Shown in pieces: positions 4,321-27,755 of a stretch of DNA of 64,000 nucleotides. This stretch comes from an uncultured Poribacteria bacterium. Lineage in GTDB: Bacteria; Poribacteria; WGA-4E; WGA-3G. Within the stretch, counting starts at the first letter, position 1. Each line of letters opens with the position of its first letter. A program made the position numbers and the translations under genes. The stretch is taken from the NCBI GenBank assembly GCA_958295855.1, contig OY282383.1:252481-316480 (forward strand), given 5' to 3'. The notes under the pieces are model-generated. The model worked only from the letters and a program-made list of their open reading frames with translations. It was not told the origin of the DNA and did not search any database.

Positions 4321-4562
4321 GTAGAAAACTTACATCAAAAATCTCCGACGAGATCTACCACAACGTCACAACTACAGCAGAAACCGCCGGAACTAGGCAA
4401 TAACAAAAAATCAGAAACCTCCGACGAGATCTACAGTGCATCGTCAGAACTATCCTGCCAATGGTATTTGCCCCTGCTTTGCAGGGGTTTCATACCAAGT
4501 TGTGAATTTTAATGAACAACTTTTTTATTTCTTACTTATGCTGATTACTCCGCAAGGAATGA
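4321..4562. repeat. composite MITE-like element (family A module, gcccctgctttgcagggg hairpin, TIR ctccgcaaggaatgac)
   Basis: Same module order is seen at 35040-35345, 47800-47950 and 54465-54700. Confidence 0.8.
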
Positions 4563-11821: not shown

Positions 11822-12072
11822 TTTTTCGTCATTCCTTGCGGAGAATTGAGAATGCAAGATAGGTATAACAATGCCCTATAAATCTCGTCGGAAGTTTCTG
11901 ATTAAAGCAATAAGGATATTACCCCCGCTTTGCAGGGGCAAATACAATTCTGTCACCGCCCGCTCTCTTATTTAGTTCGCCCGTAGGAGGGCACCCCGAA
12001 TCCCGATTTATTCCGTGGCGGTGACAAAAAACTGAAACCTAAATAGTCTTAGGAAAACAATGAATCAGCCTT

Positions 12073-12101
12073 GACAAATTCTGCCATTCAATGTATACTT
12101 A
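12073..12101 (+). promoter_or_regulatory. sigma70-like promoter (ttgaca-17-tatact)
   Basis: ttgaca at 12073-12078 and tatact at 12096-12101, upstream of the 12148 CDS. Confidence 0.4.
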
Positions 12102-12147
12102 TAGAAAGTACAAATGGCTAACACGCATCCAATTAATAGGAATCAAA

Positions 12148-13374
12148 ATGCAACATTTCACAGATGCAGCGTTGCTACAAATTATTGAAGACGACGAATC
12201 TGATCGCGTTGAGTTCAAGGAGTCTTTGTCTGGCAGTGCTCCGAAAGAAATCAGAGAAGCCATCTGTGCTTTTGCCAACGATTTGCCTCGCTACGAAAAA
12301 CCGGGATTCGTTTTCGTCGGAGTGAGGAAAGACAAAACTATTGTAGGGCTACCGGTTACAGATGAATTGCTCCGACAGTTGGCGGATATGAAAACTGATG
12401 GTAATATTGTGCCCCCGCCATCCCTGACAGTAGAAAAGCGTGTGCTGAAAGGCAAAGAAGTTGCTGTAGTTAAGGTGGAACCAACTGACTCACCGCCAGT
12501 TCGCTTCAAGGGCATTATCCGTATCCGTATCGGGCCTCGCCGAGGCATTGCTACCGCGCAGGATGAAAGGATTCTCAATGAAAAGCGTCGGCACAAAGAT
12601 GCCCCTTTCGACATTCAACCGGTTCTCGCGTCAGACCTATCCGATCTCAACCTAAGCCAATTTGAACACGAATATCTGGTGCAAGCCTTTGACCCTGACA
12701 TATTAGAAGCCAATGAACGCACGCTTGAAGAACGCCTAGCGGTAACGAAAATGATTGCCGCAACTGATGAGCCATTCGTGACTGTGATGGGAATCCTCGT
12801 ACTGGGCAAAAACCCACAAGATTTTCTTCCAGGGGCTTACGTGCAATTTCTCAGAATTGATAATATTCAATTAACAGACGATAGGGATATTCGTGATAGC
12901 GAGGCCATCAGGGGAGCAATCCCTGATATCCTCCGTCGTCTGGACGATAAACTGATAGCACACAATCGCACAGAGGTTGATTTCACGACTAGCCCTGTCG
13001 AACAAAGTACAGCACTTTATCCTATCCCGGCGTTGCAACAAATCATCCGGAATGCTGTTATGCACAGAACTTATGAAGCAACTCATGCACCGGTTCGCGT
13101 GTCATGGTTCAACGACCGCGTTGAAGTTTTAAGCCCCGGCGGTGCTTTTGGCGCAATAACGGTTGAAAATTTCGGGCAGCCCGATTTAACTGATTATCGC
13201 AACCCAAATCTGGCAGAAGCGATGAGAATCCTCGGTTATGTGCAAAAGTTTGGCATAGGAATACAGATAACTAGAAGTCTCCTGAAAAAAGCAGGCCATC
13301 CTGAACCAGAATTTGCAATCCTTGATAATTACGTGCGGGCAACCATAAAACTAGCACGCAAGCAAGAAATTTAA
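12148..13374 (+). CDS. AlbA_2 (Schlafen-like) DNA-binding domain protein with C-terminal HATPase-like domain (often misannotated RecG-like)
   Basis: MQHFTDAALLQIIEDDESDRVEFKESL...AICAFANDL...VFVGV is the typical AlbA_2 N-terminus. The C-terminal half resembles the ATPase-like domain that accompanies it. Confidence 0.6.
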   Translation: MQHFTDAALLQIIEDDESDRVEFKESLSGSAPKEIREAICAFANDLPRYEKPGFVFVGVRKDKTIVGLPVTDELLRQLADMKTDGNIVPPPSLTVEKRVLKGKEVAVVKVEPTDSPPVRFKGIIRIRIGPRRGIATAQDERILNEKRRHKDAPFDIQPVLASDLSDLNLSQFEHEYLVQAFDPDILEANERTLEERLAVTKMIAATDEPFVTVMGILVLGKNPQDFLPGAYVQFLRIDNIQLTDDRDIRDSEAIRGAIPDILRRLDDKLIAHNRTEVDFTTSPVEQSTALYPIPALQQIIRNAVMHRTYEATHAPVRVSWFNDRVEVLSPGGAFGAITVENFGQPDLTDYRNPNLAEAMRILGYVQKFGIGIQITRSLLKKAGHPEPEFAILDNYVRATIKLARKQEI

Positions 13375-13415
13375 GGGTATTTTACCCCTGCTTTGTAGGG
13401 GAAACCGATACCACC

Positions 13416-14438
13416 ATGACAATGCCTATTCCAGTTTTAACTTTCTTCAACAATAAAAGCGGAGTTGGTAAGACATCCCTCGTTTATCATCTCGCGTGGA
13501 TGTTATCCGACATCGGCTATCGAGTACTTGCCTGCGACCTCGACCCACAGGCAAACCTCACTAGTATGTTTATCAATGAGGAACGCCTAGAAGTACTGTG
13601 GCCTGACAGCGGCGCGCGAAAAACTATCTATAATGCCCTCCAACCGCTTTTGGACGGAACGGGAGACATTGAGCCACCTCACTTGGAGAATATAACACAC
13701 GAACGGCTAACGCAAGAATTAAGCCTCATCGTCGGCGACCTCATGCTATCTTCAACCGAAGATGAACTTTCGAGCCAATGGCCGGAGTGTTTGGACCGGC
13801 GTCCCCGTGCCTTCCGCGTCATCTCGGCACTATGGCGAATTTTGCAAAGGGCGGCGAGCGACCGGCAATCCAATATTGTCTTGGTAGATGTGGGGCCCAA
13901 CCTAGGGGCCTTGAATAGGGCGGTGCTAGTCGCTACTGATTACGTTATCGTTCCACTTGGAGCCGACCTATTTTCACTCCAAGGGCTGCGGAATCTCGGC
14001 CCGACGCTACAAGAGTGGCGAAAGGGGTGGCAAGAGAGACGTAGCCGCAACCCTATCCCTGATTTACAGATGCCCAATGGATTGATTCAACCGATTGGCT
14101 ATGTGGTGCAGCAACACGGGATTCGTCTGGAACGTCCAATTAAGGCTTACGACAAGTGGGTTAACCGGATGCCGGCAGAATACGCCCGAAACCTGCTAGG
14201 CAATAACAAGGGCCCTTACGCCAAAACACCGGCAGAAGATAAAGAAAATGCCCTCGCTACTGCCAAGCATTATCGCAGCATCGTCCCGATGGGACAGGAA
14301 GCGCGCAAACCGATTTTCCACCTCACCACGGCCGATGGAGCTATCGGCAGCCACGCTGCTGCTGCCCGCACCGCGTACAAGGATTTCAGGATTTTGTCAG
14401 AAAAGATAATCGACAGAATAGGAATTAGGAAGGCGTAA
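13416..14438 (+). CDS. ParA/MinD-family ATPase with C-terminal extension
   Basis: Deviant Walker A FFNNKSGVGKTS, then ACDLDPQANLT, then the ...VDVGPNLGALN...ATDYVIVPLGADLFSLQGL pattern. Confidence 0.7.
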   Translation: MTMPIPVLTFFNNKSGVGKTSLVYHLAWMLSDIGYRVLACDLDPQANLTSMFINEERLEVLWPDSGARKTIYNALQPLLDGTGDIEPPHLENITHERLTQELSLIVGDLMLSSTEDELSSQWPECLDRRPRAFRVISALWRILQRAASDRQSNIVLVDVGPNLGALNRAVLVATDYVIVPLGADLFSLQGLRNLGPTLQEWRKGWQERRSRNPIPDLQMPNGLIQPIGYVVQQHGIRLERPIKAYDKWVNRMPAEYARNLLGNNKGPYAKTPAEDKENALATAKHYRSIVPMGQEARKPIFHLTTADGAIGSHAAAARTAYKDFRILSEKIIDRIGIRKA

Positions 14439-14519
14439 ATATTCCGCAACAAGCGCGTTAATCTATTCGGGCGCGAGCCCTGTGCCTTGCACCACTCTCA
14501 AGCCTTTGCTGTCGATGCA

Positions 14520-14770
14520 AAAGAGAAACATCAGAAATCTCCGACGAGATCTTCCACTGCGTCACAACTACAGCAGAAACCACCAGAACTAGGCAAGAAC
14601 AAAAGTCTGAATCTCTGTGCTAATTGTCGCCGTTGGGTGCAGCTTCCCACGTTCATATTTTGACAAGGAAGGTTTTCGAAATACATCATCAGGAACCTCC
14701 GACGAGAGCTACCACAACGTCACAACCACAGCAGAAACCACCAGAACTAGGCAAGAACAAAAAATTTGAC
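14520..14770. repeat. two family A repeat copies
   Basis: atctccgacgagatcttccactgcgtcacaactacagcagaaaccaccagaactaggcaagaacaaaag at 14530-14600 and 14695-14762. Confidence 0.85.
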
Positions 14771-14877
14771 TGCTAACCAATCCATCAATTGCAGCCTCCA
14801 GGTCCCCGAGGGACGTACCACAGGCAAGTCTAAATCTTCTCAGTCGTTCTCCTAACATGATTGTGATACCCATCAGT

Positions 14878-15111
14878 TTACTTCAAGGAGAGGAAAAGTG
14901 CGATAAGCGCGATAATCGCAGCAGCACAACCTGCAGCGGCACCGACTTTGCCCCACATGGCAGATGCGGCTTCCTCTTTCCCCTCCAGTTTGCCGCGTAT
15001 CCAACCCAACTCTCGACTTACCTGCTGCTTCCACTCTTCCGTTTTCTCTATGAAGTTCTCTGTTTTCTCAATGAAGTTCAAAACGCGTTCTTTGAAGTCC
15101 TCATCAGTCAT
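14878..15111 (-). CDS. small tail-anchored membrane protein (XhlA-like coiled-coil + TM; hypothetical)
   Basis: MTDEDFKERVLNFIEKTENFIEKTEEWKQQV...GAAAGCAAAIIALIALFLSLK. Internal 7-aa tandem duplication and a C-terminal TM helix. Start chosen at the ATG ending at 15111. Confidence 0.35.
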   Translation of the reverse strand: MTDEDFKERVLNFIEKTENFIEKTEEWKQQVSRELGWIRGKLEGKEEAASAMWGKVGAAAGCAAAIIALIALFLSLK

Positions 15112-15398
15112 GATACTTCTCCTGATAACCTTGGGCGGATTGCTTGAATTTGACCGCGGAGCGAATGTGAGACATAAACTCCGCCTGTCTTGCAAGGAAT
15201 TTGGTGTTAGATATACGGTAAACATGAAAAGTGTAGGGGGAGCAAAGGTTTTGTTGTTCCCCCTACCTTTACTGTCTATTCTGTTAGCGTTTCATTGATT
15301 TTACTTGTGTCATTAGTAACCTGACAAATCTAGTTGTTCCTAGGACAGGCAGGTTCGCTAAAAACGACTCTTCCGACAACTTTGGACTAGCCAAATCG

Positions 15399-15980
15399 CT
15401 AAGATTCATCAGTTGTTACAAGCGCTAGTTTGATTAGAAAGGAGAGGACGCTTTCGATATCCTCTGGGCTCACGTCCCAACCATACTCTCCGGCAACCTG
15501 TCGCACCTCTCCTATTGTACTTTTCCCTCTCCAATTGACAATGTAGTGGACTTTTGCCGCGATGGAAAGCTTGTTAAAATCGTTAGAGATCTCCTGGGCG
15601 TTGAGGTTCTGAAGTGTTTTGTCCCATTTCCGGAAGTCAGGTTTTTGCTGGGTAGCCTCCCAGATGTTTTTAGCATCAGGGGTTAGAGAATAAGCGTGCC
15701 TGCGAATTTCTCCGAAAGCGTTTCGTTCAATTGAAGTGGAAGTAAAAGACTCCGTGACTTCATTGAGGACACCATAGTTTACTAGCCCATCTAGGTGCTC
15801 TGCAATGAAACTACTATAAGGTCCGTAATAGTGTGCGGAGAATCCAAAATTTTCTTTAAGCAAAACGCTGAGAAAATAGATTTTCTTTTGGAGGAGGGTT
15901 CTCCCCTGTAAACCTGTCTCTCCTTCCCTCGCAATAACAAGTAGAAGGACATCGACAATGTGCATGTTGTCTCCTTTCAT
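15399..15980 (-). CDS. Panacea-domain (DUF4065/GepA-like) protein, copy 1
   Basis: LLQKKIYFLSVLL...HYYGPYSSFIAEHLD fits the Panacea LQKLLYF...GPV core. The C-terminal 60 aa are nearly identical to the paralog at 22204-22785. The ~120-bp 3' flank (15301-15420) is also duplicated at 22120-22230. Confidence 0.55.
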   Translation of the reverse strand: MKGDNMHIVDVLLLVIAREGETGLQGRTLLQKKIYFLSVLLKENFGFSAHYYGPYSSFIAEHLDGLVNYGVLNEVTESFTSTSIERNAFGEIRRHAYSLTPDAKNIWEATQQKPDFRKWDKTLQNLNAQEISNDFNKLSIAAKVHYIVNWRGKSTIGEVRQVAGEYGWDVSPEDIESVLSFLIKLALVTTDES

Positions 15981-16162
15981 GAAGAACGCAAAATTTTCTG
16001 GATTTCGCTTTCCTCTTTTCCTGAGATTGTTTCGTACGGGGCATAGACTTGAATTGTCTCTAAAGCAGAGGTATCGGCGGAGTGTCTTACGAAAAACAGT
16101 TCACTTGCATAATCGCTCATAGCCCTTGGTTCCGACTGATTCTCGTCAAAAAGGGACAGCAT
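15977..16162 (-). pseudogene. remnant of HD-protein C-terminus (homologous to end of 22782-24179 gene)
   Basis: MLSLFDENQSEPRAMSDYASELFFVRHSADTSALETIQVY... aligns with ...ITIFDENQSEPRAMSDYASELFFARPATDNEASLETVQVY... at the C-terminus of the HD protein. No upstream HD body is present. Confidence 0.45.
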
Positions 16163-16316
16163 TTGTAGCGTATAGACACATACCTTCCCGCCTTAGTCCC
16201 ATAGGGACGGCATGTATATAGAAAACATTCGCTCCTCTTTTTAGCCCCGTAGGGGCGGCATGTATTGGAGGTTCAAACCTGAACATCATTTAGAAGCCAA
16301 AAATTTTACACATCCA

Positions 16317-17933
16317 TCACTCACCGAAGATGTCATCATGTAACTCCTCATAGACTGCCATACCAGGTTGAATGAGTGGGGCGAGAATATCTCTCATGAA
16401 ACTGTCTATGTTGTTTCCCATTCGTGATGGCTTGAAAGCCTCTCGCGCAGCGTGGTGGAGGTCTTGAACAATAGATTTCAGATCAGCGGCATCTTTGACA
16501 ACTTTACGCAATTCCTCAATCTTATCGGGCTTGTTTTCCTTTTCACCTAACTTAGTCAGCACCTCATCATCTATCAGGTAACTTTCAATTGTTCGCCGTG
16601 ACAAAGTGCGGATGCCTTTTTGGGCATACCTCTCTTTTGCCGAATCGGTTGCATAATCCCCGTCTCGGAGCCTGACGATTTTCGCCCTTTTCGCAATTGC
16701 CGTTATAACAGGAATCAGATTTGTGTCAGCGTTTTCTACATCTTTTCTGCCCCCGATGGAAACAAAAAGTGTTTCAGGGTGATGCTTCTCAAAAATCTGA
16801 TTATAGCACGCGGCATCAAAGCCTTCGGAAGCATCTTCGATTTTGCCTTCACAGAGAACAATCTGCTCGGGTACCACTAATTCGGAGAGGTCATCAAGGG
16901 TGACTTCATAGATGCGCGCCCAGAGATTTGAATCCGGCGGAGTGGGTATAAGCGTTACAGGTTCGTCGAAGTCGTGCCTATCAAAATTAAGGAAAACGAC
17001 AGATTTCGGACACTTTCGCCAGAGATCTTGCGCCTTGCGCACCATGCCAATGGAATGGGTCGCAATCCAAAGTTGGGACTTGTCAGGAATAAGGTTGTAA
17101 AGTTCCTCAAGGAGTTGTCCCTGAAGTTTCGTGTGCATGTGGGATTCAGGTTCGTCAATGCAAATGATGGTTTCGTCGTATTCAGCCTTTGTGACTATGA
17201 CATCCAGGAGCAGATCTAGTGCCGCCTTTTCCCCGCTGGCGAGATTCTGATATGAAAACCTCTCGCTTGTCCCTTTGTCAAATTGGAAGAATCCTCCGTC
17301 TGCCGGATGTCCCAAGTTCTTTAAAACCAATTTTGGGTCGTTGAATAGTCTACATATTGCGCCGCGGAGTTCGCCAAGAATCTCGTCTTGAAGCTCGGTT
17401 AAACTTTTCCCGTGTTGTCCGATTTCCGAACTACGCTCTAGCCATCGAGATGCTAACCTCCAATAATTTGATACAACAGCCTCATCATTTTCTATCAGGC
17501 TGACAAGCCGACGTTCCTTTAGTGGATTGTCCCTGTTGATGGTATGCGAATGAGTCATCGTATAGTTTCTGTAGGCGGAACGCGCGCTCACGCATTTGTC
17601 CCATTCATAGTCCGAGTACGGGTCTCCTCCGTGGAATTCTACATTTACGCAATCCGATATAAAACCACCTAAGAATCCAAGAAGGCTTTCTGATGGATAA
17701 TCACTAGATTTGACATAGTACTCCAAGATTTGGTAATAGTCATCCGATGTTTTAGTTTCATCTGTTGGAATGGGTGATAAATAGGTATAGAACTTCAGAC
17801 CCTCAAACACCGAGGACTTTCCGCATCCGTTGGGACCTATCATGACCACGAGCTTCGCCGTTTCAGGTAAGCCTTCAATAGTTAGGTCTGTGAAACGTTT
17901 GAAATTTTTCAGTTTAATCGATTTTATCTTCAT
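16317..17933 (-). CDS. OLD-family ATP-dependent endonuclease-like protein (ABC-type ATPase + C-terminal TOPRIM-like domain)
   Basis: Start at MKIKSIKLKNFKRFTDL. Walker A GPNGCGKSS, Walker B ICIDEPESHMH, then WIATHS. C-terminal VLCEGKIED...IGGRKD...RLRDGDY resembles the TOPRIM E / DxD motifs. The ORF's upstream 76 codons are repeat-derived. Confidence 0.7.
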   Translation of the reverse strand: MKIKSIKLKNFKRFTDLTIEGLPETAKLVVMIGPNGCGKSSVFEGLKFYTYLSPIPTDETKTSDDYYQILEYYVKSSDYPSESLLGFLGGFISDCVNVEFHGGDPYSDYEWDKCVSARSAYRNYTMTHSHTINRDNPLKERRLVSLIENDEAVVSNYWRLASRWLERSSEIGQHGKSLTELQDEILGELRGAICRLFNDPKLVLKNLGHPADGGFFQFDKGTSERFSYQNLASGEKAALDLLLDVIVTKAEYDETIICIDEPESHMHTKLQGQLLEELYNLIPDKSQLWIATHSIGMVRKAQDLWRKCPKSVVFLNFDRHDFDEPVTLIPTPPDSNLWARIYEVTLDDLSELVVPEQIVLCEGKIEDASEGFDAACYNQIFEKHHPETLFVSIGGRKDVENADTNLIPVITAIAKRAKIVRLRDGDYATDSAKERYAQKGIRTLSRRTIESYLIDDEVLTKLGEKENKPDKIEELRKVVKDAADLKSIVQDLHHAAREAFKPSRMGNNIDSFMRDILAPLIQPGMAVYEELHDDIFGE

Positions 17934-18162
17934 ATAATACACTCCTAAACGTTGAATTGGTATGATTGCGGAGGCAACCCCTGTCCAGTCACATACTGCG
18001 CCGCTGGAGCGGAAGAGGGGAGCCTCGGTGCGATGCTCCTCTTTAGCCCTATAAGGGCGACATGTGTATAGTACCGCGGGCCCACCCTCCCCCTTAGCAC
18101 CAGCGGGGGCGACATGTGTCGAATGAAAACCAAAAATTAATGGGAGGATGGAGGTGTTCATT

Positions 18163-18270
18163 GTCTGAATCGCGGATTACGCAGATTACGCGGATTAACG
18201 CGGAGAAGAGCAGAACCCCTCTTAAAATCCGCGTTTATCCGTGTTATCCGTGATAATCCGCGATTCAGAC
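18163..18270. repeat. 108-bp palindromic element with GCGGATTA-type iterons
   Basis: gtctgaatcgcggattacgcagattacgcggattaacgcggag...ctcttaaaatccgcgtttatccgtgttatccgtgataatccgcgattcagac. The 17-bp terminal inverted repeats enclose 3-4 tandem 9-bp units on each arm. Confidence 0.5.
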
Positions 18271-18323
18271 AAAAAAATAATCCGCGCTCGCAACTCAGAA
18301 ATAAGGAAAACGCGCGACTCCCA

Positions 18324-18354
18324 CACACCTACATCCCTGCATCCCGATACGTCC
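18324..18354. repeat. 31-bp direct repeat copy 1 (cacacctacatccctgcatcccgatacgtc)
   Basis: Second copy at 24334-24364 with 1 mismatch. The two copies flank the MTase + Panacea-2 + HD segment. Confidence 0.7.
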
Positions 18355-18360
18355 ACTTAA

Positions 18361-21300
18361 TTATCCCACAGTGTTTTTCTCTCCTTCCACGCCCATCACT
18401 TTTTCCACAATAGCAACTTCATCATCAGTTAATCCATAAAGCGCGTAAATCAACGCATCAATTTGCCGCTCATCCGCGGCGCTCTCTGCCTTCGGGTTTT
18501 CCCATTTCGCTGACAGAAGCTGTTCCACAAGTTCAATAATCGGTTGTTGCTGCTCAGGTGACACAAGCGGAATAGGTATTTTGCCAACATAGTAGTTATC
18601 AAAGTGCATCGTCATGAGTGCAGAGCAAAAGATAAACCGGTGGGCATACCAATTCACTAGCGTGGAGTTGAATAGGGCAGCAATAAAATTCAGGCTAAAA
18701 TTTGGATTCGTGAGAAACGTATTTTCGACAGTGTCAACTCCTAATATATCACCGGTTTTGTCAACGGTAGCCTTTATTTTTTTGTGCGTCACGATATTCT
18801 GAGAGAGGATTTTCGGCTGAAGTAGCGATTGAATTTTCTTATCGGCAGAATCAAGAGTGTCGCGGTTAGCAAACCCTCTCACACCATCAATTCCGTAGCG
18901 GCTTATATTTCTTCCACCAATCACTTTAATTGCACCAGTAGCGTTCAGGAATTTCTGTACCGACAAACCTCGTACACTCTGGGAAATTTCGCTTAGGTGC
19001 GTCCCGATACGATTTAGCTTTAAACCTAACTGAATTTCATCGCTGGACACATCGCATATCCATGCCTCAAACGTTTTCGGATAGTCTTTGGAAATCTGAG
19101 TCGTTTGGGTAAACGTATCATTGACAAACTTCCGAGCTGTATAGAAATCATTTTTAGACTGGGAACTGTAGACGAAAACAACCTGTTCCAATAAGACATT
19201 CTCAAAAGCCCGTTCAACATCAACGAGAACAATGGCTTTTTCTGACAAAGTGAAAGCTAAGCTCTGCCAAGTTTTAGAATACAATAAGGATTTGGGAACT
19301 ATAAATGCGAGGTTACCATCAGGTTTCATCAAATGATTTTTGGCATAATCAATAAACAGGGCGGCACTGTTTGAATTTCGGGTATCTTGAAGGTTGGCTT
19401 TAATCTGCGCTAGTTCAGCTTTCGGAATTTTAGCACCATAAGGGGGATTGCCGATGGCAATGTCAAACCCATCTTTCACACCGAACATCCACTCCGTGTC
19501 AAAGAAATCGGCGACAGCGTTCTGGTCATACGCATCCCAGGTGGCAATTTTCTGGGCCTCTCCAACACTCGCTTTTAACCTTTTCTCACGAACCGTGTAC
19601 GCCTTCTGAAGTTTTTCACGTAATTGATTGCGCGTCCGTTCTGTCTGCAGCTGAGCAACCTGTTCCGCTATCTTGTTTTGCTCACTCCCCACCCAGTGCA
19701 CATGCTGGGCTATCAATGCCTGCTTCAATTGTTCCCGAACGCCTGCCTCTTGGCGGATGTACCGGAGTTTTCGTTGCCGGGTGTTCGCGTTGAAATACCT
19801 CTGGCGGATAGCACCAATTTCAGCGCGTATCTGCCGAATGTTGTCGGTTTCAAGCAACAGCTGCTGGGCGTCTGTATTTAGCCCAATGAGGGTATTGGCA
19901 GCAACGAACTTCACTTCCAGATTGGGCAGCGGCCGAATGCCGTAGTTTGCCGCGCGGTTCTCGTTCGGCACCTGCTCAATGATGAGCGAGATGAAAAAGC
20001 GGAGTTTGGCAATCGTGACAGCGATGGGTTGAATGTCCACGCCATAAATGCCGTTTTGGATAAGGTAGAGCTTGCGTCCGTAGTCGTTGTAGCGGTTCGC
20101 TTCGGAGAACACCTGCTCGATACCCGCAAGTGCAGCTTCGCGGCTTTGCAGGTCAGGAATTGTTTCTGCCTGCTCGAGTTGTCGCTGTTTCCAGCGTTCA
20201 TTCTGCGGATCCAGTTTTTGGAGAATCAGCACCAGTTTATTGAGAATGCCCATCGGGAAAGCACCAGAACCGACTGCCGGATCGATGATTTTGAGTTCGT
20301 CTATCGCTTGAATCATTGACATGATTTCATCTTCATAGATGAGGTGTTTATTGGGATTATCTTCCGTACCTTGCCGGTCATAGGCAAGGAGATCTTCGCG
20401 GAGCCTGCCCTCCAAGCCCTCCCCGTGGCCGTCGGAGGGTTCAACCTTCTGAAGGAAATAGGCGATGAGCGCCTCGTCTACCATGTAATCAACTATCTGC
20501 CGTGGGGTATAGTAGGAGCCGGTGGCTTTGCGCGCGGTGGACTGTGTTTCCGGATTAGACGCGCCGAGCAGATTCTCAAACACCTGCCCGAGCAGTTCCG
20601 GGTCGAGGGCGACTTCTTGCTCAATGGGCGTGTTTTCCTCTACCGTGAACTTATAGCGGGAAAAGAGCGGAAAGATGCCGTTTTCTTCGTCAAAGAAGAG
20701 TTTTGTCGGGACGTGTAGTTTCCGCCTGTCGTTTGGATTGTCAGTGAAACAATCAACGCGCGCCCCACCATCACCGGGCGCCTCAAACGTATCCAGGCAG
20801 TCGAACAACCCGCCGTTAACAAACGGCACCTGCTTGAGGTACTCCAGAAATGCGTCTGCATCTTGGAGGAGATCCGCGTAGCGATATTTGCTCGCATCTC
20901 GATGATCTGGGTTATTGCGCCTACTAAAGACGCGTTCACTTATCGGCGTATTGAGGGTGGCAAAAAAGAGGTTTTGGAGGACAGCCTGGTAGTAATCGGA
21001 ACGCTCTTCGGTAGACGCGAGCTGCGCTCGCCACTTGTATGTTACCCCGCTTTGCGGGGAAGCATACCTGTCCCCGGTAGAACTGGCATGGGGCTCGCTA
21101 TCTCTCAGAAACGCTTGCGCGCCTTCTCTCTCAAAAAGTGCCGGAGGCACCAACCCCTTTTCCTTCAGAAACCAGATAAAGAGGAGCCGTGTTATCAGCC
21201 GGATGCCCTGCATCGCATTCGCTGCATCCGGAAATCTACAGGCCGCCTTTGCCCAATCATACCATTTCTCAAGGTCTCGGTAAAAACGGCGGTTGAGTGC

Positions 21301-21972
21301 CTCCGTATTGAGAATGCCCTCCCACACCTTATGGAGCGTATCAAAGTTATGAACGCCTTCGGTTTCAATCAGTCTATTGAGGTGGAGTTCGGCGAGGATG
21401 TCTAGATGCGCGCGGTGCGGGGAATTCAAGTTTATGTCTTTGATGAGCGTGACTTTCTCCAGCACCCGCTTTTCAGGCTCGCGTTTGTGCCTTCGCCGGT
21501 TGATAATCGCGAGGGTCAGAAAAGCACTAGACCGGAATATCACCATGATGGGCTGCGGGAGCTGTCTATTGATAAAGCGGGTAATGTCGGAGAGTTGTGT
21601 ACGTGTATAACTCCCCTCGGCAAGTTGCACGGCAACGAACATGTAGGAACGCATCAGTGTGTCGTCTATGTCCGTGCTCTCAAAGAGTGATTTCTGCTGA
21701 GTTATCTGCGCGTTAATCTCAGTATCCGTCACTTGCAAGACTAAGTAAAATGCCTGCCAGTCGTTAATGCGGAGTTTGTGAGAGGGGTTGGCGGTTTCTG
21801 CGGCAGCGGCCTTGAGGCGTTGGTACCTGTCGCTATCTATACCGTCGTTTCCGACCCTCCTGCTGTGGTAGCCGAGGGTGTTGAGGAACGCGGTGGCGGC
21901 TTCCCTGAGGGGTTGTTCATCGAAGTGCCGGAGGTTCGCCTCAATGTTATGTTTGATGGTGTCTGAATTCAT
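18361..21972 (-). CDS. large N6-adenine DNA methyltransferase, PglX/type IIG-like (NPPY motif)
   Basis: Motif I IIDPAVGSGAF and motif IV FDIAIGNPPYG, 1203 aa. ATG chosen at MNSDTIKHN (21972); the longer ORF would need a TTG at 22008. No recognisable nuclease motifs were seen by eye. Confidence 0.75.
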   Translation of the reverse strand: MNSDTIKHNIEANLRHFDEQPLREAATAFLNTLGYHSRRVGNDGIDSDRYQRLKAAAAETANPSHKLRINDWQAFYLVLQVTDTEINAQITQQKSLFESTDIDDTLMRSYMFVAVQLAEGSYTRTQLSDITRFINRQLPQPIMVIFRSSAFLTLAIINRRRHKREPEKRVLEKVTLIKDINLNSPHRAHLDILAELHLNRLIETEGVHNFDTLHKVWEGILNTEALNRRFYRDLEKWYDWAKAACRFPDAANAMQGIRLITRLLFIWFLKEKGLVPPALFEREGAQAFLRDSEPHASSTGDRYASPQSGVTYKWRAQLASTEERSDYYQAVLQNLFFATLNTPISERVFSRRNNPDHRDASKYRYADLLQDADAFLEYLKQVPFVNGGLFDCLDTFEAPGDGGARVDCFTDNPNDRRKLHVPTKLFFDEENGIFPLFSRYKFTVEENTPIEQEVALDPELLGQVFENLLGASNPETQSTARKATGSYYTPRQIVDYMVDEALIAYFLQKVEPSDGHGEGLEGRLREDLLAYDRQGTEDNPNKHLIYEDEIMSMIQAIDELKIIDPAVGSGAFPMGILNKLVLILQKLDPQNERWKQRQLEQAETIPDLQSREAALAGIEQVFSEANRYNDYGRKLYLIQNGIYGVDIQPIAVTIAKLRFFISLIIEQVPNENRAANYGIRPLPNLEVKFVAANTLIGLNTDAQQLLLETDNIRQIRAEIGAIRQRYFNANTRQRKLRYIRQEAGVREQLKQALIAQHVHWVGSEQNKIAEQVAQLQTERTRNQLREKLQKAYTVREKRLKASVGEAQKIATWDAYDQNAVADFFDTEWMFGVKDGFDIAIGNPPYGAKIPKAELAQIKANLQDTRNSNSAALFIDYAKNHLMKPDGNLAFIVPKSLLYSKTWQSLAFTLSEKAIVLVDVERAFENVLLEQVVFVYSSQSKNDFYTARKFVNDTFTQTTQISKDYPKTFEAWICDVSSDEIQLGLKLNRIGTHLSEISQSVRGLSVQKFLNATGAIKVIGGRNISRYGIDGVRGFANRDTLDSADKKIQSLLQPKILSQNIVTHKKIKATVDKTGDILGVDTVENTFLTNPNFSLNFIAALFNSTLVNWYAHRFIFCSALMTMHFDNYYVGKIPIPLVSPEQQQPIIELVEQLLSAKWENPKAESAADERQIDALIYALYGLTDDEVAIVEKVMGVEGEKNTVG

Positions 21973-22003
21973 GTCAGGCCTGCTTTTTCCACTAAAACGG
22001 AAA

Positions 22004-22118
22004 GGCAACTCCCCTACGATGAGCGTGCCATCAGGGCGGATGGCACGCTCATCGCCATCGTTGAGAGGCCGATTGTAATGTCAGATGAGACGGTGCGTGG
22101 GAAAAATCGGGTGCATGT
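22004..22118. repeat. 115-bp duplicate of the 3' end of the 10106-11821 gene (copy of 11698-11812)
   Basis: ggcaactcccctacgat...ggatggcacgctcatcgccatcgttgagaggccgattgtaatg.cagatgagacggtgcgtgggaaaaatcgggtgcatgt is ~94% identical between the two positions. Confidence 0.75.
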
Positions 22119-22203
22119 TTAGTAACCTGACAAATTTAGTTGTTTTAGGACAGGCAGGTTCGCTAAAAATGACTCTTCCGACAACTTTGGAGCGGCCAAA
22201 TCG

Positions 22204-22785
22204 CTAAGATTCATCAGTTGTTACAAGCTTTAGTTTGGTTAGAAAGGAGAGGACGCTTTCGATATCCTCTGGGCTCACGTCCCAACCATACTCTTCGGCA
22301 ACCTGTCGCACCTCTCCTATTGTACTTTTCCCTCTCCAATTGACAATGTAGTGGACTTTTGCCGCGATGGAAAGCTTGTTAAAATCGTTAGAGATAGGCT
22401 GGGCGTTAATCAACTCTAGTGCTGCTTTCCATTTTGGAAAATCCGGTTCTTCTTCGAGGTCACTCCATACCTCGCGGCCCCCCTCGGCCAGGGAGTAGGT
22501 GTGCCGGCGAATTTCGCCGAAAACATTTTGATCTTTTGAAGCTGTCGCGAAGGATTCTATCTTTTCATTAAGGAATCCATGGGCAACTAAACTATCTAGG
22601 TGCCCCGCAACCACGCTACTGTAAGGACCGTAGCGATGCGCGGTGAAGTCAAAATTAACTTCCATCAGCACAGATAGAAAGTAGACTTTTTTTTGGAGGA
22701 GCGTTCTCCCTCGTAGTTCGCCCCTGTCTTCGCTATTCACAACGAGTAGAAGAATGTCTATGGTGTACATTTCATTACCTTTCAA
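22204..22785 (-). CDS. Panacea-domain (DUF4065/GepA-like) protein, copy 2
   Basis: LLQKKVYFLSVLM...HRYGPYSSVVAGHLD. Its start overlaps the stop of the upstream HD gene (ATGA). Paralog of 15399-15980. Confidence 0.55.
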   Translation of the reverse strand: MKGNEMYTIDILLLVVNSEDRGELRGRTLLQKKVYFLSVLMEVNFDFTAHRYGPYSSVVAGHLDSLVAHGFLNEKIESFATASKDQNVFGEIRRHTYSLAEGGREVWSDLEEEPDFPKWKAALELINAQPISNDFNKLSIAAKVHYIVNWRGKSTIGEVRQVAEEYGWDVSPEDIESVLSFLTKLKLVTTDES

Positions 22786-24179
22786 GCAGAGCGTAAAATG
22801 TTTTGAATTTCCGGTTCAAGTGCCGAGCGCCTCTGTTTGCCCGATAGATTATTCCCATCTGGTGATACGTAAACTTGCACCGTTTCTAGAGAAGCTTCGT
22901 TGTCGGTGGCGGGTCTCGCGAAAAACAGTTCACTTGCATAATCGCTCATAGCCCTTGGTTCCGACTGATTCTCGTCAAAAATCGTAATCGCTTCCGCATC
23001 CAGGATGTAACTCCGGCTCCCGTAGTTTGGATTACGCATCTGAAGAGGCCTAATAATTACATAATCGGTATCACTACGGAGATGTGCTGCAATCTTTCGC
23101 TCCAATTCCTGTTTCAGAAGGGAATCATCTTTCATTGCAAGCAGCCTGCGTCTCACCTTGCTATTTGTTTCGTCTTTAAGCCGAAGTTCTGCAACCATTT
23201 TGAAGAGGTTTCGGTTGTAGAGCCTGTTGAAAATTTCACGTGCTTTCTCTTGGGGACAAGCTTTCAAAATATCAATCAGTTTCTCATCATGGTAGGTGAG
23301 ATAGTTTTGAATGAAGCTTTCAGGGTTTTCTTCACTGTATTGATAAAGTTTGGCCATTTGTGTATTGCCGCGCTCTATTGCAAGGGTAATCCCGCGGATA
23401 ATCATCTCATTGGAAATGAGGCTGACCCGGTGCCAATATACCTGCTGTGTCATGTGATATCGCGCAAGCAGGAGTTGTTCAAGGGCATAAATGCCTTTAC
23501 TGCTAACTGCTAGAGAGGTTTCTGTTTTGTCAACCTCAATAAGGCATGATTCAATCAGTTTTTCCAGATCGTATATCCCATATTTAACACCGGCGAAATA
23601 GGAATCGCGTAAGAGGTAGTCCATTTTATCCGCGTCTAATTCGCTAGAGACAATGTCACGCTGCCAGTCTTGTGTATCTTGCCCTTGAATCATGTCAGCT
23701 ACGAAATCCCGTTCATCCTTGTTCAGAATGCCGCGGATGGCCGAGTCAGTCTGAATAATATCTACAGTAATTTTCTCGTGTATCTTTTCGCGCGTAGATC
23801 CCATATCGGTTCGATCCGGCGCGTGCTCATCCAACAAGTACTCCGAAACGTGACTAAATGGCCCGTGCCCAACATCATGAAGTAACGCCGCAAGTCTAAC
23901 CCGCTCTACGTCTTCATTGCATATTCTCGTTGGATGCAATTCTTGGAGCTTTGTGCAAATTCGGCCCGCGATGTGCATCACACCAATTGAATGATCGAAG
24001 CGCGTATGTAACGCCCCCGGATACACCAAAAACGTCATCCCCAACTGCCGAATTCGACGGAGCCGCTGAAACACCGGGGTGTTAATCAGTTTCATTTCCT
24101 TTTCAGAAACTTTGATAAACCCGTGAATCGGGTCGCGCATTTCATGGGAACGTTCTATCATATTAAAATTATACCACAA
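22782..24179 (-). CDS. HD-domain dNTP triphosphohydrolase-like protein (dGTPase/SAMHD1 family)
   Basis: RFDHSIGVMHIAG, LLHDVGHGPFSH and ELDADKMDYLLRDSYFAGV match the H..HD..D and DxDRxDYLxRD signatures of dNTPases. Confidence 0.7.
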   Translation of the reverse strand: MWYNFNMIERSHEMRDPIHGFIKVSEKEMKLINTPVFQRLRRIRQLGMTFLVYPGALHTRFDHSIGVMHIAGRICTKLQELHPTRICNEDVERVRLAALLHDVGHGPFSHVSEYLLDEHAPDRTDMGSTREKIHEKITVDIIQTDSAIRGILNKDERDFVADMIQGQDTQDWQRDIVSSELDADKMDYLLRDSYFAGVKYGIYDLEKLIESCLIEVDKTETSLAVSSKGIYALEQLLLARYHMTQQVYWHRVSLISNEMIIRGITLAIERGNTQMAKLYQYSEENPESFIQNYLTYHDEKLIDILKACPQEKAREIFNRLYNRNLFKMVAELRLKDETNSKVRRRLLAMKDDSLLKQELERKIAAHLRSDTDYVIIRPLQMRNPNYGSRSYILDAEAITIFDENQSEPRAMSDYASELFFARPATDNEASLETVQVYVSPDGNNLSGKQRRSALEPEIQNILRSA

Positions 24180-24333
24180 TATGTTAAGTAATGCAAATTA
24201 AAAATTGAGTAAACTTATGATGATTTTTCACCCTTCACACTGATATTCCCACATTCTAACCTGCCATCTCCACATAAAAGTCTTGCATAATGTCTGAAAT
24301 CAATCAAGGAAAAGCAAATCTTTGATCTGCCCT

Positions 24334-24364
24334 CACACCTACATCCCTGCATCCCGATCCGTCT
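24334..24364. repeat. 31-bp direct repeat copy 2
   Basis: cacacctacatccctgcatcccgatccgtc; see 18324-18354. Confidence 0.7.
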
Positions 24365-24452
24365 GCGCTATCAACGCAATCTCTTCCTCCGACACCGGTG
24401 TGCCGGAGACATCGCCCCACGCCGCGCAAAGTGACACCGAACCCACGTTTTA

Positions 24453-27400
24453 TTAAGATTCGGCAGCGTTATTAAACCCGCGGCTGATAACCAGCCATGT
24501 AATCAGTTCAAATTGAGTCTCTTCCGTGATTTGGTTTTCGGCAATCGGGAGCAGGAAATCCGCACTTGCCTCCAGCTGATCGTTGACTTTCCGATTGTAC
24601 GCTTGGCGAATTGAATCCATCGCGGCATCAATTAGCCTCTCATAAAGCCTCATATCGCTGCCGTTGGCAGTCTCCTCGTTAAACCAGTGACACAGGTTTT
24701 GATTGGGAGTAGTTTTCCCGACACAGAGCGCGCTGAATCGTTCTAAAATCTGTTTCGGATTGGTGAAACCGAGAGAGACTGCACCTTTATCGCTGATATG
24801 GACGAGGTAGTAGGGATAAATCGGATTGAGCTTCTCTCCATCTTCATTCTCCTTCGCCTCGCCGGTTTGTCTTAGACAGAAGATAACGCCCGGTTCAATA
24901 TTTACGGGGGCACCGTCGTGCTTCTGAGGCGCGGTAACAGCGTATAAGCCGAGGGGTGCGTTTCGGAGTTCCACCTCGTTGCTGCGGAGATAGTTAAGGA
25001 GTTGTACGCGGAAATCGCCAAGCGTGAATTGGTTGAGATTCAATTGTGCTTCAATATCTTCAAACTCAAGGATTTCGCTCTGCATGCGGCGCAGCTGCGC
25101 GTCCCGGTGCGTCCAAACCTGCTCCATGCTCTTTTTCTCTTTCAATGAAAGCAGAGCGTCATCACCTGTAGCAGTGAGATTGACGAGTGCCATTCGTGCC
25201 TCAACGCGAGGTTTGAGATTGATATACTCGTCGAGTTCAGGTGTGGGCCAGAAGTTGACAAGCTGGATGTTCTCGTTACGGCTCCCAATCCGGTCAATTC
25301 GTCCGAAACGTTGGATAATGCGGACAGGGTTCCAGTGGATATCGTAATTGACGAGATAACCGCAATCCTGCAGGTTTTGTCCTTCGGAGATACAATCGGT
25401 GGCGATGAGGAGATCGATTTCGGGGGTGGCATGTTTCCCCTGCTTTGTAGGGGTATCAAGATGGGTTCTATCCTTGGAGATTGGGGAGAAATTGGTGAGA
25501 ATCTCGTTGAAATCATTTCTTCCAAGCGTGGTGCTGTTGGCACTGCCTGTGACGACAGCACAGTGAATGTTAAGCGTCTCGGTTGCCCACGCGTGCAAAT
25601 TATCGTAGAGATAATTGGCAGTATCCGCAAAAGCGGTAAAAACGAGAATTTTGCGATTCTCTTTTCCGCATCGGTTTGTTGTGGGGTGCTGCACCTTGGC
25701 AGCGATGAGCCGTTTGAGTTCCTCCAATTTTGCATCCCGGTCGGGTGTCATGTTTTTCGCGATGCTGTAAATTTTCTCCAATTGCACCTTGTCGTCTCGG
25801 AGGTCGGCTAACCAAGCGTCCAGATCGAGGTGTTTATACTGATACACCTCATCTTTCCCTGCTTGTATACCGGTCTGGAGTTCGTCGTCTTCTCCATATT
25901 CTTCGGTTGCCTCGGCAAACGCATCGAAACCACTTTCATGAACCGTTCCCGCGTGTGCGTTCACAAAGTCGCCAATTTCAGACTCACGCGCTTTAATATT
26001 TTCAATAGTGCGTTCCAGCGTCGTTGCAAAGGAGTAGACGCTACTTTCAAGCCGTTTGAGGAAGTTCACCTTCATCATACCGATGAGATTGAACTCGCGC
26101 TGTTGGAGGAGTCTACCGCCATAATGGTGTTGGCACGCTTGTCGGATATATTTTGACGGATTAAAAAGTGAGAGTTTATAGCCATCAATTTGATTGCTGA
26201 TCGCTTGGTAGGTGGGGAATTGCCCTTGCCTGTCAATTTCTGGAAAGATAGACTTTGGAGTCTCATGCTCTGGAAACCCACCGATCTGTTCCATAGAATC
26301 GCTATAGAAGTTCTGAATATGTGTACGGGAACGGGCAATAGTGAGCCGGTCCAAGAGCGAAAAGAAGTCCGCACTGAGGCTTTCCGAAAGATTTTCTTGC
26401 CTTCTTGATTTATCGGGGAGCGGCTCAGTTTCTGTTGTCCATGTCTCAAAATTGCTTTGGGCAGTCTTAAGCGTTGCTCTGATGCTTGGGATACCGGTCC
26501 CTTTAAAGGCATCGTCTTTGTCTTCGGTGATTAAAGAGATTTGGTTCTCCAGATCGGTGAGTCGATTGTTGACTGGGGTGGCAGAGAGCATAAGCACTTG
26601 GGTTTTGCATCCACTCTGGATAATGTCTTCCATTAATTTATTATAACGAGCACCGCGGTTTCGGAAGTTGTGGGATTCATCAATGACGACAAGATCGTAC
26701 CCGTCCCATTCATGATGTGCAAGGTCAATGCCGTTGGATTCACCGCTGTCCCGGCTCAAATCCGTGTGTGCCAGCACAGCATAACGGAACTGATCGGCTT
26801 TCAGTGGATTATTTTTATTGCGAGATTGTGTATGATAAAGCGTCCAGTTTCTTTCCAACTTCTTAGGACACAGCACTAAGACGCGGTAATTTCGCAACTC
26901 AAAGTATTTGATAATAGCGAGTGCCTCGTAGGTTTTGCCTAACCCAACGCTATCAGCGATGATACAACCTTTGTATGCCTTCAGTTTCTGGATACACGCC
27001 TGAACACCGTGTTTTTGAAAGGCGTAGAGTTTCTGCCAGATTTCAGTTTCCTGAAACCGGGGATTTGCTTCGACAAAGGGTGTGTCGTTTGCGTCTGTCA
27101 AGAAATTTTCAAAAAGGTGGTAGAGGGTTTTGTAGTAGATGAATTCGGGGGCTTTGTCTTGATAGGCATTTTCGAGGGTTCGCAGCACCTGTCGTTTTAC
27201 ATCTTCAACCTCGTCGGATTCCCAAAGGTTATCAAACCACGTTTTCAGGTCAGCGCAGTCGCTTTTGCTGTCGACTTCAAGGTTGAGTTCAATATTGCTC
27301 GCCTTTTCGCTTAACCCCAAGCCGCGTACGGTAAAGTTAGCACTCCCGATGAGCGCATCCTCACCGCCGGCCTTCTCAATATAATACATCTTTCCGTGCA

Positions 27401-27755
27401 GGAAATTAGAACGGCGCACCGAGCGGAGCTCCACTTTCTCTTCAATCCAGGCGGCACATGCCTTGGCGAGCTCGCTTTGGGGGAGGTAGTTCTCAAGGCT
27501 TAATCCCGCTTCAGTCAACGCAAACGCCTTGCCCTCCGTTTTTTGCGGGTCCATTCCGCCGATGAAACTCGGTTCACCGAACAGAAAACGGAGGTTATCA
27601 ATGCCAGTCAGCGACTCTTTGAGGGCGTTAAAGGCGTAAATGGTGAAATAGGCGGAGACGATGGAGAGGGAAGCACCCTCTTGGATTTTCTCTCGCAGAA
27701 AATCGGCGACGGTGCCGTACATGCTGTTATCTCGGATGCGGGAGTGTTGGGACAT
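24453..27755 (-). CDS. PLD-family nuclease / SNF2-family helicase fusion protein
   Basis: N-terminal HKD-like motif FLHGKMYYIEKAGGEDALIGSANFTVRG. SNF2 motifs CIIADSVGLGKT (I), VIDESHNFRN (II) and HWNPVRIIQRFGRIDRIGS (VI). A family B hairpin encodes LDTPTKQGKH in frame (25425-25454). Confidence 0.8.
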   Translation of the reverse strand: MSQHSRIRDNSMYGTVADFLREKIQEGASLSIVSAYFTIYAFNALKESLTGIDNLRFLFGEPSFIGGMDPQKTEGKAFALTEAGLSLENYLPQSELAKACAAWIEEKVELRSVRRSNFLHGKMYYIEKAGGEDALIGSANFTVRGLGLSEKASNIELNLEVDSKSDCADLKTWFDNLWESDEVEDVKRQVLRTLENAYQDKAPEFIYYKTLYHLFENFLTDANDTPFVEANPRFQETEIWQKLYAFQKHGVQACIQKLKAYKGCIIADSVGLGKTYEALAIIKYFELRNYRVLVLCPKKLERNWTLYHTQSRNKNNPLKADQFRYAVLAHTDLSRDSGESNGIDLAHHEWDGYDLVVIDESHNFRNRGARYNKLMEDIIQSGCKTQVLMLSATPVNNRLTDLENQISLITEDKDDAFKGTGIPSIRATLKTAQSNFETWTTETEPLPDKSRRQENLSESLSADFFSLLDRLTIARSRTHIQNFYSDSMEQIGGFPEHETPKSIFPEIDRQGQFPTYQAISNQIDGYKLSLFNPSKYIRQACQHHYGGRLLQQREFNLIGMMKVNFLKRLESSVYSFATTLERTIENIKARESEIGDFVNAHAGTVHESGFDAFAEATEEYGEDDELQTGIQAGKDEVYQYKHLDLDAWLADLRDDKVQLEKIYSIAKNMTPDRDAKLEELKRLIAAKVQHPTTNRCGKENRKILVFTAFADTANYLYDNLHAWATETLNIHCAVVTGSANSTTLGRNDFNEILTNFSPISKDRTHLDTPTKQGKHATPEIDLLIATDCISEGQNLQDCGYLVNYDIHWNPVRIIQRFGRIDRIGSRNENIQLVNFWPTPELDEYINLKPRVEARMALVNLTATGDDALLSLKEKKSMEQVWTHRDAQLRRMQSEILEFEDIEAQLNLNQFTLGDFRVQLLNYLRSNEVELRNAPLGLYAVTAPQKHDGAPVNIEPGVIFCLRQTGEAKENEDGEKLNPIYPYYLVHISDKGAVSLGFTNPKQILERFSALCVGKTTPNQNLCHWFNEETANGSDMRLYERLIDAAMDSIRQAYNRKVNDQLEASADFLLPIAENQITEETQFELITWLVISRGFNNAAES

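Follow-up and report, generated by a model that had tools for sequence, protein, structure and literature searches.

An orphaned YwgA gene and an HD stump as a probable deletion scar in the 3' tail of a putative composite anti-phage locus in an uncultured poribacterium

A stretch of 64,000 nucleotides from an uncultured Poribacteria bacterium (contig OY282383.1; called the window below, with all coordinates counted along it) carries a gene for an ATPase of the OLD/PARIS type, followed by a fragment of an HD-domain gene and by a small gene that we assign to the YwgA family. Every large open reading frame (ORF) from 15.3 to 27.8 kb lies on the minus strand. We consider it quite probable that positions ~15300-27755 of this strand form a single composite anti-phage locus of the restriction-modification (RM)-like kind, with the genes studied here as its worn 3' tail and with the HD fragment and the small gene as the scar of a deletion, to the exclusion of a new pairing between modules. 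What is found at this end is a decay product, and the picture at the level of modules varies known kinds of systems.

The locus would have as its core module a PLD-SNF2 helicase-nuclease together with an Eco57I-like methylase, to which two optional modules can be added. One is a single-chain PARIS/OLD-type ATPase-DUF4435 protein that, by analogy with PARIS, may act alone as a sensor and abortive nuclease in a back-up role. The other has two genes, a putative SAMHD1-like HD deoxynucleoside triphosphate (dNTP) hydrolase followed 11 nt later by a YwgA gene. At the usual terminal position, i.e., after the ATPase-DUF4435 gene, an HD-YwgA pair of "type 1" would have lost its HD gene by deletion, leaving a 61-codon stump at hairpin repeats and an orphan YwgA gene (YwgA1), and a second, intact pair of "type 2" (HD2 and YwgA2) would have come to lie between helicase and methylase. 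The HD enzyme could serve as a dNTP-depleting effector, with YwgA binding and restraining it, by inhibition or regulation, much as an antitoxin would.

The original prediction had described an OLD-family gene, two Panacea paralogs and a decayed HD C-terminus as the outcome of module shuffling. The features that it described are present about where it had placed them and are no chance pattern. It overlooked that all these genes, together with the PLD-SNF2 and methylase genes, make up one recurrent composite cassette, as comparison with related loci indicates.

The probable deletion scar and the cassette around it

The 61-codon fragment is a true HD C-terminus, as had been proposed, and aligns to residues 398-465 of HD2 with 59% amino acid identity (E=4e-21). 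It has remained an open frame, with an ATG that arises at the junction and a stop that overlaps the downstream gene like in intact pairs. Together with YwgA1 (window 15402-16104), the stump shares 80% nucleotide identity with the intact type-1 pair of the syntenic locus L055 (related loci are given by L numbers throughout), vs 70% with the HD2-YwgA2 pair of its own locus. One of the two options in the original prediction, a duplicated module that had lost its HD partner, fits this stump, the location of YwgA1 at the normal HD-YwgA position and the intact type-1 HD of L055. All three copies of the stump that we encountered (window 15977-16162; L003:8400-8560 and 11800-12041) are open from the junction ATG to the native stop at the next gene. 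This may reflect preserved translational coupling to YwgA or be a coincidence given the recent junction.

The features of the locus are as follows, in the direction of transcription of the large genes:

24453..27755 (-), PLD(HKD) nuclease fused to an SNF2 helicase, the product of the gene that opens the cassette (Pfam PLDc_2, SNF2-rel_dom and Helicase_C; PADLOC 'HKD+Snf2' 1e-123)
22782..24161 (-), intact HD protein of type 2, HD2 (ORF 22782-24179; Pfam HD and HD_assoc_2)
22204..22770 (-), YwgA copy 2 of type 2, partner of the intact HD (ORF 22204-22785; 188 amino acids from Met6)
21997..22118 (+), copy of the 3' end of a PQQ beta-propeller gene, 122 nt, 95% identical to 11690-11811, between the copy-2 flank and the methylase start
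18361..21972 (-), Eco57I/type IIG-like N6-adenine methylase (ORF 18361-22008; Pfam Eco57I and TaqI_C; PADLOC REase_MTase_IIG 2e-55)
18030..18161 (-), tandem pair of hairpin repeats ('family F') upstream of the ATPase start, copies at 18117 and 18065
16317..17933 (-), single-chain OLD/PARIS-like ABC ATPase with a C-terminal DUF4435-type TOPRIM, 538 amino acids (Pfam, PADLOC and homolog alignment)
16163..16316 (-), tandem pair of 'family F' hairpin repeats at the deletion boundary, from the ATPase stop codon to the HD stump, copies at 16263 and 16215
15977..16162 (-), HD stump of type 1, 61 codons, C-terminal tail without catalytic domain (aligned to HD2)
15399..15965 (-), YwgA copy 1 of type 1, intact and orphaned (ORF 15399-15980; 188 amino acids from Met6; paralog of copy 2)
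15313..15398 (-), 3' flank of copy 1, ~97% identical to the copy-2 flank at 22119-22203 (DNA comparison)

The hairpin repeat of family F is ~50 nt long (ACATGYCGYCC...), and its four copies in the 64 kb all lie here, with minus-strand starts at 18117, 18065, 16263 and 16215. They share one orientation and form two tandem pairs that bracket the ATPase gene. We met the junction from repeat to stump in three places, one in the window and two in L003. Rearrangement junctions in L003 also carry the repeats, which may mediate recombination or mark a mobile cassette.

The same genes recur in related loci in the following orders, where A stands for PLD-SNF2, M for the methylase, T for ATPase-DUF4435, H for HD and Y for YwgA:

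L005 and L001, A-M-T-H-Y (on the L001 contig A is represented by its 3' end alone)
L002, (A)-M-T-H-Y, where two extra genes separate T from H and one extra gene separates A from M
L050, A-M-T-(236 amino acids)-H-Y
L055, A-M-H-Y, without the ATPase gene and with an intact type-1 HD
L049, A-M-T and then other genes, without HD-YwgA
L052, A-H-Ya-Yb-M, with M frameshifted
L051, a PLD::HD deletion fusion and then two YwgA genes
L054, two H-Y pairs, with the YwgA after the second HD frameshifted

We had considered a "conserved five-gene system", which the lack of HD-YwgA in L049 and of the ATPase in L055 turned into a core of helicase and methylase to which T and H-Y are added as separable accessory modules; this is how the cassette presents itself across the loci compared. 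The PLD-SNF2 protein is 66-76% identical to the first cassette gene of L005, L049, L050, L052 and L055. A CotH-ankyrin gene on one side is common to the same five loci, and genes for a PQQ propeller, dockerin, PRA-CH and a chorismate-binding protein on the other side are common to L055, L037, L003 and the window. These shared flanking genes point to one variable hotspot in related genomes. The locus offers a natural series in which modules were gained, lost and shuffled at this hotspot, and it could help to tell core from accessory genes in helicase-methylase systems.

In L051 (L051:8544-9989), which belongs to another lineage, a deletion joined the PLD N-terminus of the helicase directly to the last two-thirds of the HD protein. 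Both there and in L052 (L052:10001-11183), a tandem pair of YwgA paralogs from different clades comes after the HD gene. Judging by these sequences, the L051/L052 lineage is a second, independent case of HD decay in which YwgA was kept and duplicated.

With its HKD-SNF2 and N6-methylase genes, the core resembles Hma and the 'BREX-related' type-2 systems (HKD-SNF2, N6-methylase, DUF499 ATPase and DUF3780). The likeness extends to the OLD-ABC/TOPRIM and Schlafen-type modules embedded in or adjacent to those systems, and OLD-ABC/TOPRIM back-up modules have been described within RM-like systems (PMC12839542; bioRxiv 10.1101/2024.01.29.577857). However, the methylase of the window is Eco57I/type IIG-like, and DUF499 and DUF3780 had no Pfam match in the eight locus proteins scanned and do not appear in the gene tables of L005, L050 and L055. 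Term searches of the same two papers did not meet the HD-YwgA module. The best PADLOC model for the helicase carries the label 'C3a139', which we set aside as uninformative because it comes from a list of CRISPR type III accessory proteins. The methylase probably starts at Met13 of its ORF, the residue from which homologs align. The spacer between methylase and ATPase gene holds an inverted array of CGCGGAT-like heptamers (…cgcggattatcacggataacacggataaacgcggatt… / …aatccgcgttaatccgcgtaatctgcgtaatccgcgattc…; window 18180-18300). Rfam and tRNA scans of the locus gave no match.

The ATPase-DUF4435 protein

The ATPase ORF runs from 16317 to 18161 (-), and its true start is the ATG at 17933 (MKIKSIKL...), a start common to all homologs that yields a protein of 538 amino acids. 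In Pfam it matches AAA_15, AAA_21 and SMC_N only, i.e., models of ABC-type ATPases. The best PADLOC model is fused AriAB (1.4e-28, residues 218-497), AriA models match at 9e-23 and 2.5e-21, and Old (1.7e-14) and GajA (4e-13) are weaker. Among 39 homologs, the segment G33-S41 including the Walker A lysine K39, the Walker B residues D260-E261 and T292-H293-S294 are invariant in the ATPase half. In the TOPRIM-like half, the same is true of E362 (within LCEG), D424xD426 and E457, with E450 and D455 nearly invariant. The protein thereby shows what defines the OLD family, an N-terminal ABC ATPase (both Walker motifs, the signature and the H-loop) joined to a C-terminal TOPRIM with its Glu and DxD, and the predicted ATPase-TOPRIM type stands, including conserved catalytic acidic residues. 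Pfam Toprim_OLD is not among the matches of the protein or of its 39 homologs, 21 of which match DUF4435 (PF14491; best 1e-12; homologs 52-88% identical), and a profile of the whole protein matched the PDB in the ATPase region only.

The original prediction had seen an OLD/GajA-like ATPase with neither a GajB nor an AriB partner. As to GajB, this was borne out for the locus: none of the eight large proteins scanned (12091-27755) is UvrD-like, and the flanking genes in the L003 annotation are of housekeeping types. As to AriB it was mistaken, given that an AriB-type DUF4435 domain is fused to the ATPase, as the PADLOC AriAB match and the DUF4435 matches of the homologs indicate. Fused AriA-AriB proteins are known to occur, and the catalytic residues of AriB are E26, D30, D88, E90 and E122 (PMC11464382). 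By our own arithmetic on the published numbers, E362 and D424 are spaced exactly like AriB E26 and D88, by 62 residues. From its motifs and profile matches, the gene product is a complete single-chain ATPase-TOPRIM of the OLD/PARIS type, with the "missing" AriB as its own C-terminal half.

An AlphaFold2 (AF2) model of the protein (pLDDT 78) places E362 and D424/D426 at the ends of the strands 357-362 and 418-423. Its fold matches by Foldseek are the retron Eco8 effector, Thermus OLD (6p74), GajA, PtuA and AriA (8v45). OLD, GajA and the Eco8 effector share the ATPase-TOPRIM architecture and are the top full-length fold matches; the low TM-scores (0.25-0.28) would stem from differences in domain arrangement and inserts. 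Unlike these proteins, the one studied here lacks a Toprim_OLD match and a GajB/UvrD-like partner in the locus. Its likeness to the fused form of PARIS lies in an ABC ATPase (K39) joined to a DUF4435-type TOPRIM, in the best PADLOC model and in the AriB-like acidic spacing. Unlike PARIS, its close relatives (>=50% identity) sit inside a helicase-methylase cassette and not in a phage satellite. Sensing of anti-restriction proteins such as Ocr and cleavage of tRNA are features of PARIS.

Another 23 loci with more distant ATPase-DUF4435 genes (~29-42% identity, among the matches listed) are stand-alone, with no HD, YwgA or methylase nearby. A fused PARIS-like protein within a helicase-methylase system fits the idea of a "back-up effector", possibly with a signal of positive selection. 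When the gene (16317-17933) is compared with its counterpart at L003:10001-11677, 74.5 non-synonymous and 8.5 synonymous differences give a ratio of non-synonymous to synonymous rates (dN/dS) of ~2.5 (p=0.0075 vs neutrality). The changes concentrate in two regions, the TOPRIM half and an insert at residues 46-125 that also holds a 21-residue indel. With a ratio of 0.6 the ATPase core is conserved, and the flanking PQQ gene has a dN/dS of 0.40. Selection seems to diversify the PARIS-like protein between close strains, as would be expected of an arms-race sensor. The excess may reflect such selection or a recombined tract.

The HD-YwgA module

The intact HD2 protein matches PDB sequences 2hek (4e-46), EF1143 (9e-42) and SAMHD1 (~1e-33) and is, by this homology, a SAMHD1/EF1143-like HD dNTP triphosphohydrolase homolog. 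Across homologs, the column identity of HD proteins is ~0.66-0.73 in the C-terminal part vs roughly 0.8-0.9 over most of the core.

In related cassettes YwgA directly follows HD, typically 11 nt past the HD stop, and never directly follows the ATPase. Every intact HD seen precedes a YwgA gene, i.e., HD2 of the window and those of L001, L002, L005, L037, L050, L052, L054 (two pairs) and L055, and the same order holds in six distant loci with a near-full-length HD match (L038, L039, L040, L044, L046 and L048). Among the matches listed, 11 more distant YwgA loci (30-45% identity) have HD directly upstream in nine cases, and a tenth has a tail that resembles HD in its motif. The contigs of the nine distant HD-YwgA pairs, which are mostly short, showed no homolog of the ATPase, the methylase or the helicase. 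Conversely, YwgA is kept without an intact HD of its own in the window (YwgA1), L003, L051 and L052 (Yb, an extra copy). As its cognate partner, YwgA most likely binds HD and not the ATPase. Three observations suggest that it would restrain HD, namely the strict conservation and tight spacing of the pair, the fold shared with the toxin-binding domain of DarG (see below) and the asymmetric survival of HD and YwgA. The survival of YwgA1 after the loss of its HD is the pattern of an orphan antitoxin.

The small genes are the ones that had been called Panacea. Their ORFs of 193 amino acids (15399..15980 and 22204..22785) share 68% amino acid identity (E=2e-99), and homologs together with a Shine-Dalgarno sequence (AAAGGAG) place the start at Met6. 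Homologs are labelled 'YwgA' in the JGI annotation (some homologs from the ATPase search are labelled Candidatus Poribacteria), and a profile search gathered 977 representative clusters, nearly all of 180-195 amino acids. Neither copy matches Pfam SocA_Panacea (PF13274) even at E<=10; weak matches occur in 2 of 79 family members (best E=1.9e-4), and the distant YwgA of L048 scores 16.4 bits (E=0.018), below the Pfam cut-off of 25.7. On these comparisons of both copies, distant relatives and 79 members we rejected Panacea membership and kept remote homology as a possibility, i.e., YwgA is possibly a remote relative of Panacea. What YwgA has in common with Panacea (DUF4065, PanA/SocA) is a small winged-helix-like protein beside varied candidate toxins and the rare weak Pfam matches among its relatives. 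It differs in that the YwgA proteins of the window fail the Pfam model and in that their partner is constant (HD) and not promiscuous.

An AF2 model of YwgA2 (pLDDT 86) has its best PDB fold match by Foldseek in the C-terminal, DarT-binding domain of DarG (7yk3_B, TM 0.67, E=2e-5). Hidden Markov models of DarG match YwgA as well (PADLOC DarG 2e-7; NCBIfam antitoxin_DarG 1.7e-4), in either case along the C-terminal portion of the profile, and the motif LQKxxYF...YGPYS is common to YwgA and the DarG C-terminus. The sequence identity between the two is just 16%. The small genes are, as modelled, YwgA family members whose fold is related to the DarG C-terminal domain. The neighbouring enzyme is potentially toxic, as next to DarG. 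Unlike DarG, however, YwgA has no macrodomain, and its neighbour is an HD phosphohydrolase and not a DarT ADP-ribosyltransferase.

In its logic, an HD dNTPase with a restraining gene, the module is analogous to Clover (CloA dNTPase and CloB regulator) and to the stand-alone anti-phage dGTPase (PMC12265719), and the analogy is one of logic alone. The inhibitory nucleotide of Clover is the product of CloB, a nucleotidyltransferase; YwgA, by contrast, is small and does not look enzymatic, and the HD protein of the window is SAMHD1/EF1143-like and not Dgt-like. Our searches of the literature turned up neither a functional study of YwgA or YwfO nor a described counterpart of the HD-YwgA module. The ties of YwgA to SAMHD1-like HD genes and to the toxin-binding fold of DarG provide a testable hypothesis for the restraint of a dNTP-depleting enzyme.

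YwgA1 is intact, which settles a doubt raised in the original prediction that it might be disrupted. It is 97% identical to its L003 ortholog with a dN/dS of ~0.43, close to the 0.40 of a flanking housekeeping gene, and 74-78% identical to the YwgA proteins after intact HD genes in L054 and L055. On their strand there is no promoter- or terminator-like site between the ATPase gene and YwgA1, so that transcripts of the ATPase gene probably read through into YwgA1, though the hint is a weak one. Downstream of YwgA1, i.e., 3' of it, a small ORF (14878-15225, -) encodes a hydrophobic C-terminal segment (…AAGCAAAIIALIALFLSLK); the region around it is 98.7% identical in L003, and no match to this region was detected in L037.

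Rearrangement history and alternative readings

The two modules of the window are mosaics of identity at the DNA level, with a 63-nt identical block in the HD tail, then ~520 nt at roughly 65-70% and then ~280 nt at ~97%. Pairwise comparison confirmed the predicted common end of the two copies, given that the ~280-nt block comprises the last 63 YwgA codons and ~90 nt of 3' flank (15313-15398 vs 22119-22203). The first 125 YwgA codons differ with dS ~1.6 and dN/dS 0.23, vs zero synonymous and four non-synonymous differences (dS=0) in the last 63. Type 1 groups in a clade with L054, L055 and L050, and type 2 with L037 and L052. By these measures the two copies are distinct alleles with homogenised ends, and recent gene conversion or recombination between diverged alleles would have produced the near-identical ends, i.e., the 63-nt block and the 63 codons with their flank.

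L003 is the closest relative, with flanks ~96% identical to the window, and it lacks window 18715-27664. There, the stump and YwgA1 (98.7% identical) lie upstream of the ATPase gene and not after it. After the ATPase gene come the same repeat-to-stump junction and then a type-2 tail (98%), with YwgA2 deleted and the type-2 HD tail abutting the real PQQ gene. That one and the same junction is joined once to a type-1 and once to a type-2 tail implies recombination inside the 63-nt block. A simple integration of the Campbell type was rejected because the gene order does not fit it. In the window, the 122-nt direct repeat of the PQQ gene (11690-11811 / 21997-22118) abuts the YwgA2 flank just upstream of the methylase and is, to judge by its sequence, the scar of a segmental duplication or rearrangement. 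Its location beside the YwgA2 flank suggests that type 2 was once the direct neighbour of the PQQ gene, like the type-2 tail in L003.

Such a repeat lends itself to a different history, in which one HD-YwgA pair was recently duplicated in tandem in situ, from the 3' end of the PQQ gene to the methylase, and deletions followed. The middle of copy 1 would then have been overwritten by a foreign allele, and the ends would never have been converted. The duplicate of the PQQ 3' end lies exactly where this requires it, between copy-2 flank and methylase, and the shared blocks have similarly low divergence, at 0% (63 nt), ~3% (280 nt) and 5% (122 nt). We nevertheless regard this history as rather doubtful. 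It needs several more deletions and an allelic patch replacement, types 1 and 2 fall into different clades that each have relatives elsewhere (L054, L055 and L050 vs L037 and L052), and the order helicase-HD-YwgA-methylase is found independently in L052.

We think it unlikely, though worth stating, that HD-YwgA is an undescribed toxin-antitoxin-like anti-phage module in its own right. A YwgA protein with a fold like the DarG C-terminus or Panacea would check a dNTPase, and the stump with YwgA1 and the tandem YwgA copies would be orphans of the immunity type, exchangeable with the active pair at the conserved blocks.

Taken a step further, the stump and YwgA1 could be a silent stored cassette, comparable to orphan cdiA-CT/cdiI, from which recombination at the 63- and 280-nt blocks swaps the specificity of the HD tail and the YwgA N-domain. 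The variable segment (HD tail and first 125 YwgA codons) does lie between near-identical blocks, L003 carries a recombinant that crossed over within the 63-nt block, and YwgA duplicates recur in L052, L051 and L054. Yet the HD tail is just moderately more variable than the HD core, there is a single stored copy, and ordinary gene conversion between paralogs yields the same pattern, all of which makes such storage very improbable.

The other option in the original prediction, that Panacea proteins here pair with different effectors (HD or OLD), would mean that YwgA1, once HD was lost, was rewired to the upstream ATPase-DUF4435 protein, which it would now regulate or neutralise as an antitoxin. 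An exchange of partners is documented for Panacea antitoxins (PMC8832971), and YwgA1 is intact, under purifying selection vs L003 and probably co-transcribed with the ATPase gene, downstream of it on the same strand. We give this next to no credence, though, since the HD stump still lies between the two genes, YwgA follows HD in related loci and directly follows the ATPase in none of the related cassettes, the L003 ortholog (97%) lies upstream of the ATPase gene, none of the 23 distant stand-alone ATPase-DUF4435 loci has a YwgA, and the protein has a regulatory ATPase domain of its own, like fused PARIS.

Several points weigh against the worn tail with a deletion scar, the reading that we prefer. 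No two of the window, L003, L037 and L052 have the same arrangement, and no unique parsimonious order of events emerged; the 122-nt PQQ duplicate implies at least one segmental duplication without a place in that order. YwgA1 is without sign of decay, which would fit the acquisition of another role too. The case for YwgA-HD binding consists of adjacency and the TM 0.67 fold match of a model. As further differences from PARIS, the ATPase protein of the window taken by itself scores sub-threshold against Pfam DUF4435 (E=0.017), and its C-terminal half has no sequence link to AriB in the PDB. Finally, a single syntenic hotspot in related genomes, apparently from sponges or the sea, supplied most full cassettes, which are therefore non-independent samples of linkage.

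Two genes on the plus strand adjoin the locus, one for a Schlafen/AlbA_2 protein with HATPase_c_4 (12091-13374) and one for a ParA-like ATPase (13416-14438). Both are missing from L003, and L037 has the ParA gene and short Schlafen remnants. A Schlafen gene 70% identical to that of the window adjoins the cassette in L005, and Schlafen-type modules are frequent companions of BREX-related systems (PMC12839542). HIP1 is not enriched in the window, which makes a typical cyanobacterium an unlikely source. A dispersed repeat of ~76-80 nt with CCCCTGCAAAGCAGGGG-type hairpins occurs across the window, e.g., at 14529-14604, 14687-14762, 4334-4411 and 426-503, and its commonest 12-mers have 17-20 occurrences.

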